Below are positions 18,674 to 24,173 of a stretch of 33,652 nt of DNA, piece by piece. Every line of letters begins with the position of its first letter. Positions within the stretch are counted from its first letter, which is position 1. The DNA is from a virus, in the IMG/VR virus record IMGVR_UViG_3300000052_000002, positions 1 to 33,652 of that record; one strand, written 5' to 3'. Made by a program: the position numbers and the translations under genes. The notes beneath the pieces are model-generated. The model saw only the letters and a program-made list of their open reading frames with translations, did no database searches and had not been told where the DNA came from.

Positions 18674-18695
18674 GGCCAGGATGGAAATCCCGGCC
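18674..18695 (-). terminator. Rho-independent terminator after terL
   Basis: The minus strand reads GGCCGGG-ATTTCCAT-CCTGGCC followed by ATATTTTTTTT. The stem has one G-U pair on the minus-strand RNA. The same position is an A-C mismatch on the plus strand. Confidence 0.7.
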
Positions 18696-18724: not shown

Positions 18725-19833
18725 TTACCAATCATCAGCAAATGAATAAGATCCATTGTTTTCATATTGGGATAATTTATTTAATGCTACATACCTAATG
18801 GCATCAATGGCATGATTCAAAACATCTTCCGGAGCATTAATTGCCTTCCCTGTCTTATCCTTTGCCCATTTGTATTGCCTAATCTCTTTAATCAAATTTA
18901 GGCTTCCCCTGGTGATTCTCATTTCATATTGCTGTAATCTATCAATTGAATTTTTTATTGAATCCGGCCCCTTCCTGGCTGCTTCAACATAAAATCCGGC
19001 CAATGATAAATCCATTATTGATTTGGGTTCCGCTGAATCCGCAACAATACATTCATTCATTTTTACATTTTTCTGCTTCAGATGTGAAATGATATCTGAA
19101 TTTGTTAATTTGGTTTGATACAACATTTCATCAATGTAAATTTTATCATCAAAACGATAAACCCCCACCAATGCTGTTGGATCTGCGGAAAATCCCCAAT
19201 CTAAACCATAACTGATGAATTCTGCATCATCCGGAATCCTGTCGCATTGTTCCCAATTGTTAAAAATCACCCCTTCCAAAGATCCAATTTCCCCCAGGCC
19301 ATAAACTTTGTACCAATTGGCCCAAAATGATGATCCCTGTTCTGCCTTTGCTTTTGCTTTGTTGATGAAATTCAATGATTCCGGTGGACATGCTTCGTTA
19401 TCTGTGTAATTTATAATCAGGTAATCAACATCGTTATCATTCATCAATTCATCATGGAACCAAAACGGATTTGTTGGGTTCCAATCCAGGTAAACCCCTT
19501 TTTTTGTCCTGGATGCCAATTCGGTGTACGAATGAAAATTCATGTTATTTGCCTCATTCATGTACAGCCAATCCCTTCGGGCCCCTCTTAACTTTGAATC
19601 ATTATCTGCGGAAAAAAATTCAATCTGTGATCCATTGGCAAAGTTATATTTGAAATCCGTTTGATTGAAACGATCTGAAAACCATCTTCCTGTATCAATC
19701 ATGATCTTTCGGAAATCCTTCATGGCCCCCCTTTTTAAATGTGGGATGGATTCCGCCACAATGGAAATTTCTGAATTTGGAAATTTTGTTGCAATATCAA
19801 TGAGTATTGGGATAATTGCATAAGTTTTGCCGG
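18725..19833 (-). CDS. terL: Terminase large subunit, exon 2
   Basis: The track ORF 18725..19759 extends in frame to ...(S)GKTYAIIPILIDIATKFPNSEISIVAESIPHLK and is stopped by TAA directly upstream of GCC GGC AAA ACT. It has a Walker B-like DWLYMNEA and a C-terminal nuclease-like half. Confidence 0.8.
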
Positions 19834-20473
19834 CTTATTTTGTCCCTTGAATATTTCCACCCAAGGGACTAACAAGCAGAGGAGCCGCCCTGGACTCCTC
19901 TACAAAACTTTTTTAAATTCTTAATTTTATTTACCGCTGTTGTTCTAATAAACATATTTCCAAATATTACGTCTTTTATTAACAATATCTTTTATGTGTG
20001 CTTCTGAAACATTGTACTTTTCAGCCAATATTTTTCTGCCATAATATCTACCTGATTCACTTGCAACTTTTCTAATTGCAATGATATCATTTTCATTCAA
20101 TTTAGAATTTCCGTTCTTTGATCCATGTGCTGAAATTCTTAATCCGTTTTTATACGCATGTAATTGGTTCATTGAATTGTTGCACCATTCTAAATTTGAA
20201 ATATCATTATTGAATTTATTTCCATCAATATGATTTACCTGGGTGTAATTATTCGGATTATCAATAAAATGAATTGCAATTAATCTATGTAGATTAAATC
20301 TTTTCATTTTTGAATTCTTACATAAAACAACTTCATAGTATTCATCTTTGATCAATGATATTTTTCCGCCCTTTGTTCCTTTCCTGGCAATAGAATTGAT
20401 ATTACCTTCAATATCTATTTCATATAATCCCTCATAACCAATGATTTGTTTTTTCATATTACAAAGGTAAGTT
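19834..20473 (-). mobile_element. 640-nt HNH-encoding intervening sequence, a putative self-splicing (group I-like) intron, inside the terL Walker A codons
   Basis: The last exon-1 base is U (20474) and the last intron base is G (19834). Joining them restores the frame and gives GGTKISGKT. The 3' part has hairpins at 19878..19901 (AGAGGAG/CTCCTCT) and 19842..19869 (GTCCCTTG/CAAGGGAC). I could not trace the P1 or P7 pairings. Confidence 0.6.
19945..20457 (-). CDS. HNH homing endonuclease, I-HmuI-like (NUMOD4 + HNH_3 + C-terminal HTH), 170 aa
   Basis: Motifs are GYEGLYEIDIEGNINS, HRLIAIHFIDNP..VNHIDGNKFNNDISNLEW and NSMN. It is in a different frame from both terL exons. Confidence 0.8.
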   Translation of the reverse strand: MKKQIIGYEGLYEIDIEGNINSIARKGTKGGKISLIKDEYYEVVLCKNSKMKRFNLHRLIAIHFIDNPNNYTQVNHIDGNKFNNDISNLEWCNNSMNQLHAYKNGLRISAHGSKNGNSKLNENDIIAIRKVASESGRYYGRKILAEKYNVSEAHIKDIVNKRRNIWKYVY

Positions 20474-20534
20474 ATATTTTTGTACCACCTTCATAATAAA
20501 TACAAACATTAATCAGGAAATAAAGGTTGTTCAA
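20474..20534 (-). CDS. terL: Terminase large subunit, exon 1 (20 codons plus 1 nt; TTG start inferred)
   Basis: The frame is open only from 20537 (TGA at 20540..20538) and has no ATG. It encodes (M)NNLYFLINVCIYYEGGTKI plus the first base of a split Ser codon. It overlaps the terS 3' end by 26 nt. Confidence 0.5.
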
Positions 20535-20964
20535 TCTTCAAATCCGTTTGGGTTTTCTCAACCAAATTGTTTAACCTCTGTGTAATGGATGGATTATAAA
20601 CCCCGGCCATGCCCCCGGCTATCTGATCTTCCCGGATGATTCGCTTTATACGTGAACAGACATCCGAATACAATTCGTATGCCCCCCCGGTGTTGCCAAA
20701 ATAATCATCTGTATCTTTTATGATGCCTTTTGAAAAAACATAATTGGAAAATCCTTCATAGGTTAAAGGTTTTTCCTTTGGCCTTTCAACTTGCATTGCC
20801 ATTCCACCTACCCAATCTCTTACATAAAACGGATTTGATTTAACTTTTGCTTGATATTCTTCAAACAATGTCCACATCATTTCCGGGGATTCAATGTATT
20901 TCTTTTTAACCAATGGTTGTTTATTTGCTTTCGGTGCTGCTTTTTTCTTTACTTGCTTTGCCAT
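20509..20964 (-). CDS. terS: Terminase small subunit (gp3-package-like), 151 aa
   Basis: It has a basic N-terminus, PLTYEGFSNYV (HTH-like) and ...IREDQIAGGMAGVYNPSITQRLNNL. It sits immediately upstream of terL. Confidence 0.65.
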   Translation of the reverse strand: MAKQVKKKAAPKANKQPLVKKKYIESPEMMWTLFEEYQAKVKSNPFYVRDWVGGMAMQVERPKEKPLTYEGFSNYVFSKGIIKDTDDYFGNTGGAYELYSDVCSRIKRIIREDQIAGGMAGVYNPSITQRLNNLVEKTQTDLKIEQPLFPD

Positions 20965-21632: not shown

Positions 21633-21661
21633 GATATAAAGTTACAATGTTTTTTTAATTT

Positions 21662-21885
21662 GTGTAAATACACATGTTGTGTAAAACGTGTACGCCTGAA
21701 ACTCAATGTGGTTGGGCATTTACACGATTTACACGTTTACACACAAATTTTCATTTTCTATATTTATATGTATCTCTTTATAATAATAATATATTATTAT
21801 AATCTCTATACGTACACGTGTAAACGTGTAAACGCTGTGCTGTATTGGGTTTCATCGTACACGTTAACGTGTAAACATGTGTAAA
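21662..21885. promoter_or_regulatory. Iteron cluster flanking an AT-rich core: candidate replication origin (alternatively an operator or packaging recognition region)
   Basis: GTGTAAA occurs at 21662, 21679, 21818, 21826, 21869 and 21879. The inverted form TTTACAC occurs at 21719, 21728 and 21736. A ~66-bp spacer (21745..21810), nearly all A/T, contains the 18-bp palindrome ATAATAATATATTATTAT (21783..21800). CGTACACG/CGTGTACG palindromic units lie near 21687, 21811 and 21857. Confidence 0.55.
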
Positions 21886-21898
21886 TGACATAAAAAAA

Positions 21899-21913
21899 CC
21901 CGGATAAACCGGG
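21899..21913 (-). terminator. Terminator after the primase-helicase gene
   Basis: The minus strand reads CCCGG-TTTAT-CCGGG followed by TTTTTTT. Confidence 0.6.
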
Positions 21914-21959
21914 AATTAAAGTAAAATGTGTAAGAAAACTTAATTGGTGCTTCAATGAA

Positions 21960-24173
21960 TTAAATCCGTTTTTGATAAACTCCCTGGGAAATTTTAACAA
22001 ATAATGCTGCAAAATCCTTTGTTCTCATGGATGAATCAAATTTTCTTTCGGATAAATTGATTTTTTTACAGATTTCCGCCGCCTCTTTTCGGTTGAATTG
22101 ATCAGGTAACGCATTGTAAAGATTTTCCAATTTTTCAGGTAATCCGGTTTCATTGGTTGTATGTAATCGGGAAATGATCTTTAATGTTGTTTCGGAATAG
22201 TATTTGTAAAGTTTTTGTGATAAGATCACAATTTGTTCTGTGATGATTGGATTGGATGGATTGTTAAGGATTGCAACGATCTGTGTTAATCGGCCCATGT
22301 AATTACTCATTTTGGCATGTGTTCCCAAAATGTAACCTTCAACCCTGTTTTCAATTCTTTCATTTGCAGCCACTAAATCGGCTTTATAAATTTTCCGATA
22401 TGTTCCCCTGGCTTCATTGGTAAGATTGATTCTTACCGGCTCAATTTCAGTTTCATTGTATCTTTTGGCGTTATTATAAACCTGTGATAAAATATCTGTC
22501 CAATCCTGGCAAATTTCCCTGGATCTGCTGAATGGATCGGCTTCAATGTTTAGTAATTTGTAATCTGATTCGCACATCAAAAACCTGGATGCAAATCCTG
22601 ATGTGATCCTATCCATTGGAAAAATGTTTTGGATCCTTTCCGTTTGGGTTCCCATCAATAGATTGATGTTTAAGTTTTTAACTATCCTTTCATTTTCTCT
22701 GTTGGCCCTGGATTGCACAAATCTTCCCCCACCAAATGCCTGGGTTAAAAATGATATGGTGTTGTTGTTTGATTTGTATGCACCGGCATTCAAAATATCT
22801 TCGGCCTCATCAATATAAATTCCAATGCCGGTTTTTTGATCCATGCATAATGAAATGTAACCTTCAATGGTTCCATCCTTTACAATTGGGATGAATCGTT
22901 TGGGCCTGGATTCAAAAAATGGTTTCTTATCAATCTGTGCTTTTGCTTTGCGGCCTTCCCATAATTTAAGATCGGTTGCGTATGTTCTATCTGATTGTTC
23001 CAATATCCGTTTCATTGGGTTCTGTGCCATTACTTCCTGGGCCGGTGATTTACCAACCGACATTGGGGCAATTAGGAAACAATAAAGAATGTTCTTTGCT
23101 GATCCAATTTCGGATTCATAGGATGCACCGGCCAATGAACTAACGGCCCAAATTCCGGCTGTGGCCAGGAATTCCGGCGACATGGATCGTTCCTTTGCCA
23201 CCTCAAAAATTGATTCCTTAACCGCCTGTGGAAAAATATCAAATGGAAATGCCAGGCCGGATTGCTTTTTTATTCCGATGTGATCAAAAACATTTTCCCA
23301 TGATCTTTTCAGGTGATAGAATAAAATAAACGATGGTGATAAACTCCAAACAGGATATTCATGTTTATTGTGCCAATTCGGGAAATTGTGCAACGATGCC
23401 GAAAATAATAAAACCCTTCGTGATCTATAATAAACTTTTGCGGAAATGGCATTGGATGTTGATCCTTTGCGTTTGTATGCATGGAATTTGTCTTTGGTTG
23501 AATACCGGAAATCCCGGATTAATTCAATTCCGATTCCATTTAAAATAATATCAAAATCATCATCTGAAATGTTTTTATCATAATCAATCAATTCATTTTC
23601 ATAACCTTTTGGATAATTGATGGCTTTTTTTGTTGGATCATATGCCGGTTTGTACTCATTAAAATATTGGGAAATTGATAAAAGATAATTGAAATCATCA
23701 TCATTCAATTCATCAACATCCAACATTGATTGATAATATTCTGTGTAACCTGGTGTTGGGTATGTGTATACCAATGGCCCATTACAATAAAGGGCAATTA
23801 CTTCTGATCCATCATCCGCATCCGCCAATGCCATTTTTTTGGGTAGATGATTGTATTTTATCCAAACATGAAATCCCTGGTTCCTGGTTTCTTCAATGAA
23901 TACTTTGTTTAAAACATCCGGATTATCATTTGTGATAATGTCCATCCATTGTTTGAATAGGTTTTTGTTTTTAGTATTTTTCAAATCAAAATCAATGGCC
24001 CCGAAATTGTTTTCGGTTTTAATCATTAATCCATTGTGTTTGGAATACAAATCAAAATCCGTTTCTGTTGCCCAATTCCTATGGCTAACCGGTTGTTTTT
24101 TTTTAACATCCCATTCAATAGGGATGATAGTTAACCCCAATGATTTGTAATCATTGTAAATTTCTTTAATCAT
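21960..24173 (-). CDS. Bifunctional primase-polymerase (prim-pol) fused to a DUF3987-type helicase (737 aa from MIKEIYNDY)
   Basis: The N-terminus has GLTIIPIEW..KKQPV, GAIDFDL and GFHVWIKY (prim-pol). The C-terminus has Walker A APMSVGKS and Walker B IYIDEAED. The ATG at 24173 is preferred over the track start at 24233. Confidence 0.7.
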   Translation of the reverse strand: MIKEIYNDYKSLGLTIIPIEWDVKKKQPVSHRNWATETDFDLYSKHNGLMIKTENNFGAIDFDLKNTKNKNLFKQWMDIITNDNPDVLNKVFIEETRNQGFHVWIKYNHLPKKMALADADDGSEVIALYCNGPLVYTYPTPGYTEYYQSMLDVDELNDDDFNYLLSISQYFNEYKPAYDPTKKAINYPKGYENELIDYDKNISDDDFDIILNGIGIELIRDFRYSTKDKFHAYKRKGSTSNAISAKVYYRSRRVLLFSASLHNFPNWHNKHEYPVWSLSPSFILFYHLKRSWENVFDHIGIKKQSGLAFPFDIFPQAVKESIFEVAKERSMSPEFLATAGIWAVSSLAGASYESEIGSAKNILYCFLIAPMSVGKSPAQEVMAQNPMKRILEQSDRTYATDLKLWEGRKAKAQIDKKPFFESRPKRFIPIVKDGTIEGYISLCMDQKTGIGIYIDEAEDILNAGAYKSNNNTISFLTQAFGGGRFVQSRANRENERIVKNLNINLLMGTQTERIQNIFPMDRITSGFASRFLMCESDYKLLNIEADPFSRSREICQDWTDILSQVYNNAKRYNETEIEPVRINLTNEARGTYRKIYKADLVAANERIENRVEGYILGTHAKMSNYMGRLTQIVAILNNPSNPIITEQIVILSQKLYKYYSETTLKIISRLHTTNETGLPEKLENLYNALPDQFNRKEAAEICKKINLSERKFDSSMRTKDFAALFVKISQGVYQKRI

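Follow-up and report, generated by a model that had tools for sequence, protein, structure and literature searches.

A hairpin-bearing coding gap in the P-loop of a phage large terminase gene: a candidate homing-endonuclease cassette, probably skipped by translational bypassing

The viral record IMGVR_UViG_3300000052_000002, of which a stretch of 33,652 nucleotides (nt; positions 1 to 33,652) was analysed and is called the window below, contains a large terminase gene, terL, which is interrupted by a short coding gap inside the codons of its P-loop (Walker A motif), and upstream of it a gene encoding an HNH homing endonuclease. The terS-HNH-terL features are all on the minus strand. The small terminase gene terS (20509..20964) encodes a complete protein of 151 amino acids (aa) with matches to Pfam GP3_package and PHROG 606; its C-terminal end is …EQPLFPD followed by the stop codon, and it is collinear with terS in the related contigs L021 and L002 (L-numbers designate related contigs, P-numbers are protein database entries and WIN is the window's own sequence). 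The HNH gene (19945..20457) encodes a protein of 170 aa similar to I-HmuI over residues 3-163 (PDB 1U3E, E = 1.9e-16), with 25.4 bits to Pfam HNH_3 (cut-off 24.8) and E = 1.5e-40 to PHROG 59; this family occurs in more than 2,000 phage records. The I-HmuI-type open reading frame (ORF) reported in the initial annotation, a first reading of the same DNA, is thus present and shows full-length likeness to its model. The end of the gene, with its stop codon at 19947..19945, overlaps the start of terL, whose ATG is at 19955..19953, and the gene is free-standing in the terS-terL intergenic slot. In relatives, this slot contains an ORF of 66-74 aa belonging to Pfam PF21825 'Sequestin' (3695-3895 in L001 and L002, 2683-2883 in L021 and 1242-1466 in L005).

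The long terL ORF is located at 18725..19759. Upstream, its frame is open only to a TAA, which is followed by GCC-GGC-AAA-ACT, and the first possible start near this site is a GUG at 19759, downstream of the GKT codons. The protein search gave thousands of TerL homologues, the best of which (P0001, 94% identical) is intact and has 395 aa. The intact homologues listed start with MFIRTTA(I/V)NKI..K.KKF.RGVQGG(S/T)SAGKT, written also MFIRTTA(I/V)NKI…KFCRGVQGGSSAGKT, and the window encodes the same N-terminus at 19955..19875, overlapping the last codons of the HNH ORF. This coding segment 1 has 27 codons (MFIRTTAVNKIKNLKKFCRGVQGGSSA) and matches the N-termini of intact homologues of 395-397 aa. 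Coding segment 2 (18725..19831; GKTYAIIPILID… to the stop) has 368 codons plus the stop, and is supported by the intact homologues and by the ratio of non-synonymous to synonymous substitution rates (dN/dS). Between both segments there is a coding gap of 43 nt (19832..19874), missing from gap-free relatives, which sits between the Ala and Gly codons of the P-loop (GGSSA/GKT); the order across the junctions is GCU, then UGU UAG UCCCUUGGGUGGAAAUAUUCAAGGGACAAAAUAA GCC, then GGC AAA ACU. Within the gap, there is a UAG in the zero frame at 19871..19869 and a UAA in the frame of segment 2 at 19837..19835. Segments 1 and 2 joined give a TerL of 395 aa with 25.9 bits to Terminase_3 (cut-off 23.2) and 49.6 bits to Terminase_3C, whose nuclease domain matches SPP1 G2P (PDB 2WBN). 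By these matches, the product is assigned to the Terminase_3 or PBSX type, with a predicted N-terminal Walker A ATPase and a predicted C-terminal RNase H-like nuclease.

The initial annotation had recognised that terL is interrupted inside its P-loop codons, and this is borne out, the long ORF lacking the first half of the Walker A motif. It attributed the interruption to a group I intron of 640 nt (20473..19834), whose removal would join a TTG-started exon 1 at 20534..20474 to the GKT codons. The arithmetic of that join is right (61 + 1109 = 1170 nt, yielding GGTKISGKT), and the comparison with homologues reduces the true discontinuity to the 43 nt at 19874..19832. The proposed exon 1 (20474..20534) is spurious: it is composed of the 3' end of terS, read in another frame, and intergenic DNA, and is unlike anything in the homologues. 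The real N-terminus at 19955..19875 has a normal ATG and lies inside the supposed intron. The proposed splice junction reads …YYEGGTKISGKT where homologues read …QGGSSAGKT, and the GGSSAGKT of the intron-less homologues does not align with the proposed GGTKISGKT. The spliced product obtains 22.3 bits to Terminase_3, below the Pfam cut-off of 23.2 that the corrected 395-aa product passes. Rfam 15 cmscan found no group I or group II intron and no ribozyme in 19600..20700 at E up to 10, nor in the whole window at gathering thresholds; these scans returned chance sub-threshold matches alone (snoRNA, miRNA).

Related loci were collected from IMG/VR, JGI and ENA metagenomes and one Logan assembly, with TARA assemblies also contributing, and 136 gap-free and 30 gap-bearing distinct terL loci were compared. 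The 43-nt gap is exactly kept in 13 distinct contigs of uncultured phages (27 codons, 43 nt, GGC AAA AC) and is missing in the 136 gap-free relatives. Twelve related contigs show the same 43-nt interruption without an HNH gene, such as L021, whose TerL is 95% identical to that of the window. A search with the HNH protein gave two more viral contigs in which a homologous HNH gene directly precedes terL, both with a different gap at this place, and added scans brought the gap types to five in total (A-E). Type A contains 13 distinct loci and shows a gap of 43 nt, preceded by GCK, starting with URU UAR and ending in GCM or GUA. Type B contains five distinct loci and shows a gap of 36 nt, preceded by GCG, starting with UAA and ending in GCA or GUA. 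Type C is a single distinct locus, also with 36 nt, preceded by GGA, starting with AUG UAA and ending in GGA. Type D is represented by one locus with a gap of 42 nt, preceded by GCG, starting with AAA UUA, containing UAG UAA further on and ending in GCA; its loop is common to type A. Type E contains ten loci and shows a gap of 39 nt located one codon upstream, preceded by UCC, starting with UAA, with a second UAA before the final UCA, and followed by GCA GGC AAA. Types B-E lie at the type A site or at most one codon away, and in each type removal of the gap gives the consensus GG(S/T)SAGKT and a full-length TerL.

The gap closes with a triplet that shares its first two bases with the codon preceding the gap, and this is the case at three codon positions (Ser, Ala and Gly); by our own estimate, the probability of this repeat arising by chance at three positions is about (1/16)^3. 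These two triplets are called take-off and landing codons below. In most cases the third base would form a wobble pair at take-off and a Watson-Crick pair at landing (GCG to GCA, GCU to GCC, UCC to UCA), where the reading of both codons by a single tRNA is assigned by the standard wobble rules. The residue found in gap-free proteins (Ala or Ser) corresponds to the first codon copy. In six loci the second copy is GUA (Val), a residue found at that position in none of the 136 gap-free proteins, and the second copy is nevertheless kept as G-Y-M. These observations fit the re-pairing of one tRNA. The exceptions at landing are the six loci mentioned (GCG to GUA), L095 (GCG to GCC) and L250 (UCG to GCA). 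The latter (IMGVR_UViG_3300031787_004945), of type B, has UCG (Ser) before the gap and GCA as last triplet, and is the sole first-base mismatch; either a variant of low efficiency or a sequencing polymorphism could account for it.

Zero-frame stops are present in all five gap types. In types B and E a UAA directly follows the take-off codon; the window (UGU UAG) and type C have their first stop at +2, and type D has it at +6. All types also show a C-rich/G-rich hairpin and a G-rich tract of GGG to GGGGGG. The G-rich arm of the hairpin ends, and the tract lies, 4-9 nt ahead of the landing codon (9 nt for the tract in the window), and an A-rich spacer leads from the tract to this codon. A search of IMG/VR with the pattern TTCARGGGAYAAAATAAG gave four matches, all of them in unrelated coding or intergenic contexts and judged to be chance. 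In the metagenome pattern scan, 5 of 30 matches are terL gaps and the remainder are chance matches to an A-rich pattern. A viral contig of 2.5 kilobases (kb), L089, contains at 1070-1123 the sequence TCCCTCTGAAATATTATATTCAGGGGACAAAATAAG, which is loosely similar to the 3' half of the type A gap; its surroundings contain no terL.

Two stable hairpins, which the initial annotation had noted at the 3' end of its proposed intron, are confirmed just upstream of the GKT codons, at 19903..19876 and 19869..19842. The second is the gap hairpin, with an upper stem of GUCCCUUG / CAAGGGAC (19842..19869) that measures 8-12 base pairs among the loci. In the alignment of the 13 type A sequences, four pairs of the upper stem have changed on both sides in a compensatory way (for instance G-C to A-U and U-A to C-G), a covariation score that is reached by 0 of 500 shuffles, and 94% of the alignment cells are paired, compared with 40-56% after sliding of the 3' partners. 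The RNAalifold structure agrees and adds a lower stem, 19874..19871 with 19839..19836, in which the alternation UAU/UGU after the take-off codon is a change from A-U to G·U. The hairpin is extended further by pairing between the first two bases of both codons, GC at take-off and G-Y at landing (GC in the window). Numerous G·U pairs of the gap hairpin exist on the sense strand only, and therefore the constraint acts on the mRNA and not on duplex DNA.

The first hairpin, called here 5' stem-loop, is formed by the last 28 nt of segment 1 and ends at the take-off codon (GUAGAGGAGUC-6 nt-GGCUCCUCUGC; 19876..19903). The last 36 nt of segment 1 fold at -18.8 kcal/mol in the window and at -13.5 to -18.8 kcal/mol across the 13 type A loci, whereas the same 36 nt in the 136 gap-free genes, which encode the same peptide, average -4.3 kcal/mol and never go below -12.7 kcal/mol. 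The energy of this stem-loop is -13 to -19 kcal/mol for types A, B and D, and in L016, as in types B and D, compensatory changes keep its helix. The 85-nt cassette of the window folds at -41.5 kcal/mol (z = -6.5). The type A fold pairs segment 1 (GUUUUGY) with segment 2 (GCAAAAC), which brings both junctions to the base of one hairpin; as a general feature this outer helix was rejected, being found in type A only and not in types B, C or E. A role of the 5' stem-loop plus a U-rich tail as a terminator was also rejected: there is no proper U-tract, and termination would leave the frame unrepaired.

Both terL segments are intact in 30 of 30 distinct gap-bearing loci. The dN/dS is 0.035-0.047 between gap-bearing pairs and 0.032 between the window and a gap-free relative, values which indicate that the interrupted gene stays under purifying selection and argue that it is functional. 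Since the segments are intact, the dN/dS is about 0.04 and the gaps have diverged and are still structured, the gap must be dealt with at expression. Database homologues of 333-334 aa start at an internal Met, and their contigs carry the same interruption; the truncated public entries are P0065, P0066, P0070, P0073, P0076, P0081 and P0082. In gap-bearing genomes, terL, the most-used marker in phage classification, is thus systematically mis-annotated with 333-334 aa.

The association between the interruption and an I-HmuI-type homing endonuclease, which the initial annotation had pointed out together with the catalytic core as a typical target of homing elements, holds in the wider set of loci. 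HNH homologues with 84%, 73%, 61% and 43% identity are found in the same position before other gap-bearing terL genes, and in every one of the five gap types the stop of an HNH gene overlaps the terL ATG in at least one locus. The gap-bearing loci that carry the gene are WIN, L129, L130, L291, L166, L168, L170 and L171, and there is a remnant in L169; among the 13 type A loci it is found in the window only. Considering loci with at least 600 nt of upstream sequence, an HNH gene is upstream of 5 of 25 gap-bearing and 2 of 128 gap-free terL genes (Fisher p = 0.0013).

Gap-bearing and gap-free terL genes are interleaved: the nearest neighbour of L021 is the gap-free L001, and that of L019 is the gap-free L011. 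The window shows 90% identity overall to gap-free L001 and 63-67% around the gap (nt 45-90), and, in contrast, 73% overall to gap-bearing L004 and 93% around the gap. L004 is also 93% identical to gap-free L320, with 11 synonymous differences within 55 nt around the gap, and these differences create the 5' stem-loop (-18.4 kcal/mol, versus -5.4 kcal/mol in L320). This mosaic identity has the pattern of a short conversion tract, as endonuclease-driven homing would predict. No gap-less copy of the recoded segment 1 was found in IMG/VR, and a strong 5' stem-loop is present in 0 of 136 gap-free loci; such a copy would have pointed to precise loss or to a complementary DNA (cDNA) of spliced RNA.

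Other HNH genes related to that of the window are found in different settings. Divergent genes (28-37% identity) are located upstream of gap-free terL in L281 and L288 (1053-1364) and downstream of terL in L079 (4263-4559), and their nucleases may have other targets. Other homologues adjoin or sit inside tape-measure-like genes, in L134 (3106-3460) and L140 (2447-4967). In L134 the ORF is broken between '…DNLKLG' and 'YGGT…', which are contiguous in L135, and in L140 there are three HNH ORFs in the gene region; these sites may be introns or further gap cassettes.

The reading that we favour, with moderate confidence, is that the locus is a mobile cassette composed of a homing endonuclease and a coding gap, the latter skipped by translational bypassing. 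The cassette would consist of the free-standing HNH gene, the first 27 terL codons, synonymously recoded, and the 43-nt non-coding gap; the 27-residue N-terminal peptide is conserved in gap-free genes too. The nuclease would cut the gap-free terL of co-infecting relatives near the conserved P-loop codons, and repair would copy the cassette into the cut gene. By breaking up the nuclease target, the gap would make the carrier terL immune to its own nuclease. TerL would be made as a single protein of 395 aa through programmed bypassing, as follows: with peptidyl-tRNA-Ala on the take-off codon GCU (19877..19875), normal decoding would halt; the ribosome would slide across the 43 nt, aided by the gap hairpin and by refolding of the 5' stem-loop behind it; the tRNA would re-pair at the landing codon GCC (19834..19832), and decoding would resume at GGC-AAA-ACU. 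Ribosomes failing the bypass would terminate at the UAG two codons on. The junction peptide would be expected to be of the FCRGVQGGSSAGK type, with cassette-specific polymorphisms in its neighbourhood. Take-off at the Cys or Tyr codon before the stop was considered and rejected: it has no matching landing triplet and would add two residues to the P-loop.

The closest known arrangement is the mobA/gene 60 cassette of phage T4, in which a translational bypass of 50 nt is tied to an HNH homing endonuclease (bioRxiv 10.1101/2022.08.31.505936; PMC5009743). Both cassettes have an HNH gene right before a short coding segment for the N-terminus (27 codons in the window and 46 in T4), a non-coding gap of 20-50 nt that interrupts a conserved enzyme motif and has a stop at or close to its beginning, a take-off stem-loop plus a 5' stem-loop in the preceding coding segment, and a G-rich tract followed by an A/U-rich spacer before landing. 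In both, take-off and landing codons match with third-base wobble differences, the pairs of the T4 family being GGG/GGA, GAU/GAC and GGU/GGC (Manning & Atkins, bioRxiv 10.1101/2022.08.31.505936; Atkins et al., 2016, PMC5009743), and the distribution is sporadic and mosaic, with some members that keep the gap and have lost the nuclease. The terL gaps differ in that their sequence is not similar to that of the T4 cassette and contains neither a UUCG nor a GNRA tetraloop. They interrupt the ATPase P-loop of terL rather than the topoisomerase gene 39/60, the only kind of gene in which T4 cassette homologues have been reported (Manning & Atkins, bioRxiv 10.1101/2022.08.31.505936), and the endonuclease gene is in the terS-terL spacer instead of dividing the interrupted gene into two ORFs. 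Take-off would occur at an Ala, Ser or Gly codon; the window has its stop at +2 and a hairpin that starts 5 nt beyond the take-off codon; Bacteroidota, and not Proteobacteria, are the probable hosts; and bypassing is here a proposal drawn from the sequence anatomy. The terL cassette is best read as analogous, and not homologous, to that of T4.

Several points weigh against the bypassing reading, beginning with its being drawn from the anatomy of the locus. In type A, a sense codon (UGU in the window, UAU in others) is located between take-off and stop, the first stop of type D comes at +6, and only types B and E show the stop at once, as in T4. The upper hairpin begins 5 nt past the take-off codon and not at the codon, and the 5' stem-loop is weak in type C. 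Some landing codons are near-cognate only, with a G·U at the middle position in GCG to GUA. The covariation of take-off and landing codons (GCU with GCC, GCG with GCA) was downgraded as evidence, because WIN and L021 are sisters and L095 is an exception to it. Shine-Dalgarno pairing plays little part in Bacteroidota ribosomes, and in such a host the G-rich tract may not act as it does in T4. As for the nuclease, its target site near the P-loop codons is putative, because most gap-bearing loci have no HNH gene and two gap-free loci have a divergent one upstream of terL.

Among the alternatives to bypassing, the one that survives best, and which we consider unlikely, is that the hairpin is a mini-intron cut from the mRNA, either by an RNA endonuclease plus a ligase of host or phage origin or by self-cleavage and ligation. 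The structure of the gap is conserved at the RNA level, the type A fold sets both junctions at the base of one hairpin, and removal from RNA and ribosome skipping are alike compatible with the results obtained. However, there is no Rfam ribozyme or intron match, and the segment 1-segment 2 helix is missing in types B, C and E. Excision from RNA also leaves unexplained why the last triplet copies the preceding codon (Ser, Ala, Gly), why zero-frame stops are retained and why the landing triplet is kept as G-Y-M though it would never be decoded. Splicing of hairpins this small is not known from any bacterial or phage system, which also counts against excision. On this unlikely reading, the hairpins of 36-43 nt would be mini-introns of a class not described before in bacterial viruses, and a homing endonuclease would spread them.

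It is improbable that terL is dead and that the contigs are defective phages or satellites using the terminase of a helper. Read conventionally, the ORF is indeed broken in an essential motif and gene callers give only 333-334 aa. Against this, the interruption is seen in 30 distinct loci from many independent samples with the segments intact and the gap length exact, the dN/dS is low and the gaps have diverged by compensatory changes, and the contigs are full-size (about 32-33 kb) with a normal gene order.

Still more improbable are other forms of decoding: a +1 frameshift with read-through, termination followed by reinitiation, or a TerL in two pieces (a peptide of 27-29 aa and a C-terminal fragment). 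In the window the +1 frame is open over the gap until the UAA just before GCC, but it contains stops in other type A members, such as L016. Frameshifting is excluded because 36, 39 and 42 nt keep the frame and 43 nt shift it, and all types carry zero-frame stops; the candidate +1 frameshift was rejected, with stops in the +1 frame and with gaps of types B-E that are in frame, multiples of three. Read-through would put 12-14 residues into the P-loop, there is no start codon near the resume site before the GUG at 19759, and a half P-loop on a separate peptide is implausible.

An artefact of assembly or sequencing, or the footprint of a transposon (miniature inverted repeat plus target-site duplication) with no mechanism of expression, is very improbable. 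The small size of the insert, its internal inverted repeat and the direct repeat of 2-3 nt at its flanks would suit a footprint; nevertheless, the gap is seen in independent JGI, ENA, TARA and IMG/VR assemblies, its site is constant, no second copy was found in the window and other pattern matches are due to chance, the flanking repeats differ systematically in the third base, the G·U pairs are strand-specific and the gene is under purifying selection.

The 640-nt group I intron with a TTG-initiated 20-codon exon 1, to which we give practically no credence, does restore the frame and a GxxxxGKT motif and removes a segment with a terminal G after an exonic U, but it is refuted because the alignment of homologues puts the true N-terminus inside it (27 conserved codons, seen on inspection of the TerL homologues listed), and moreover its flanks of the HNH ORF are just 16 nt and 111 nt, no group I or II covariance model matches, the identical interruption is found in relatives without any HNH gene and exon 1 is not conserved in any relative.

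Bypassing of terL would also have partial parallels outside T4. The terminase of Streptomyces phage Hau3 contains two UUA-initiated inserts of 10 nt, for which bypassing has been proposed and partly shown (PMC10732093). Hau3 also has a frame-disrupting non-coding block in the large terminase, with flanks that are adjacent in insert-free relatives and with local RNA structure that brings landing near take-off. Its inserts are at other sites of the protein, rely on a rare, regulated UUA codon in the A site as trigger and are proposed to be regulatory, and the passages on these inserts mention no linked homing endonuclease; the terL gaps, in contrast, have 36-43 nt, are dominated by hairpins and are linked to an endonuclease. 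The 'Byp' elements of the mitochondria of Magnusiomyces capitatus are bypassed inserts of 27-55 nt (PMC5009743). They resemble the terL gaps in size, in being mobile inserts in conserved genes and in having take-off and landing codons matched in full or in two out of three bases; they differ in being mitochondrial, with dozens per genome, an unassigned codon in the A site, relaxed decoding and no linked endonuclease.

The HNH protein shares with I-HmuI, the nicking endonuclease of Bacillus phage SPO1, its full length, including a NUMOD4-like N-terminus and the HNH core. I-HmuI, however, is encoded inside a self-splicing group I intron, and the gene of the window is free-standing with no detectable intron RNA. 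Selfish elements at the catalytic core of terL are known from the terL intron of Lactobacillus phage LL-H and from the TerL inteins of mycobacteriophages. These elements, too, occupy the best-conserved codons of an essential gene, and expression of the gene requires their removal, but the terL gaps have only 36-43 nt and contain neither a ribozyme core nor an in-frame protein-splicing domain.

No match to the region was found among cultured phages by megablast and blastn against 50,697 phage records, a set assumed to include T4-like genomes. The nearest cultured relatives are Flavobacterium phages, with 50% TerL identity, and a contig of a Flavobacterium metagenome-assembled genome shows 62% TerL identity; by this relatedness, the hosts are likely to be Flavobacterium. 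Downstream of terL, 30 nt past its stop, there is a terminator-like hairpin (GGCCGGGATTTCCATCCTGGCC) with a T-run at 18674-18695 on the minus strand, which is plausible as the end of a terS-(HNH)-terL transcript. Upstream of a gene encoding a DUF3987 primase-like protein, the window shows an AT-rich non-coding stretch (21633-21960) with direct and inverted copies of GTGTAAACGTGTAAA at 21728-21742, 21818-21832 and 21863-21875, around a ATAATAAT palindrome; this stretch is a candidate origin or operator region. No phage-encoded tRNA was found in the window.

Efficient long-range bypassing has been represented for more than 35 years by one natural system, gene 60 of T4 and its homologues, all of them in topoisomerase genes of myoviruses. 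Counterparts of gene 60 bypassing have long been presumed to exist elsewhere (PMC5009743), and the T4 cassette is still described as unique (Manning & Atkins, bioRxiv 10.1101/2022.08.31.505936). Apart from Hau3 and the mitochondrial byps, a full-text literature search found no description of a gap in the terL P-loop or of a bypass cassette beyond T4-type topoisomerase genes. The terL gap family follows the same logic as the known bypass systems, with a different sequence, gene, host and gap geometry. If the bypassing reading is true, this would be the first such family outside T4-type topoisomerase genes, independent and non-homologous, located in the P-loop of terL, in a different phage group and in a host phylum whose ribosomes handle Shine-Dalgarno pairing differently. 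Its five natural variants, which differ in the length of the gap, the codon at take-off (Ala, Ser, Gly), the place of the stop and the hairpin, would be a comparative series for establishing which bypass signals are universal, and the family would strengthen the idea that homing endonucleases and 'immunity' gaps move together as cassettes.

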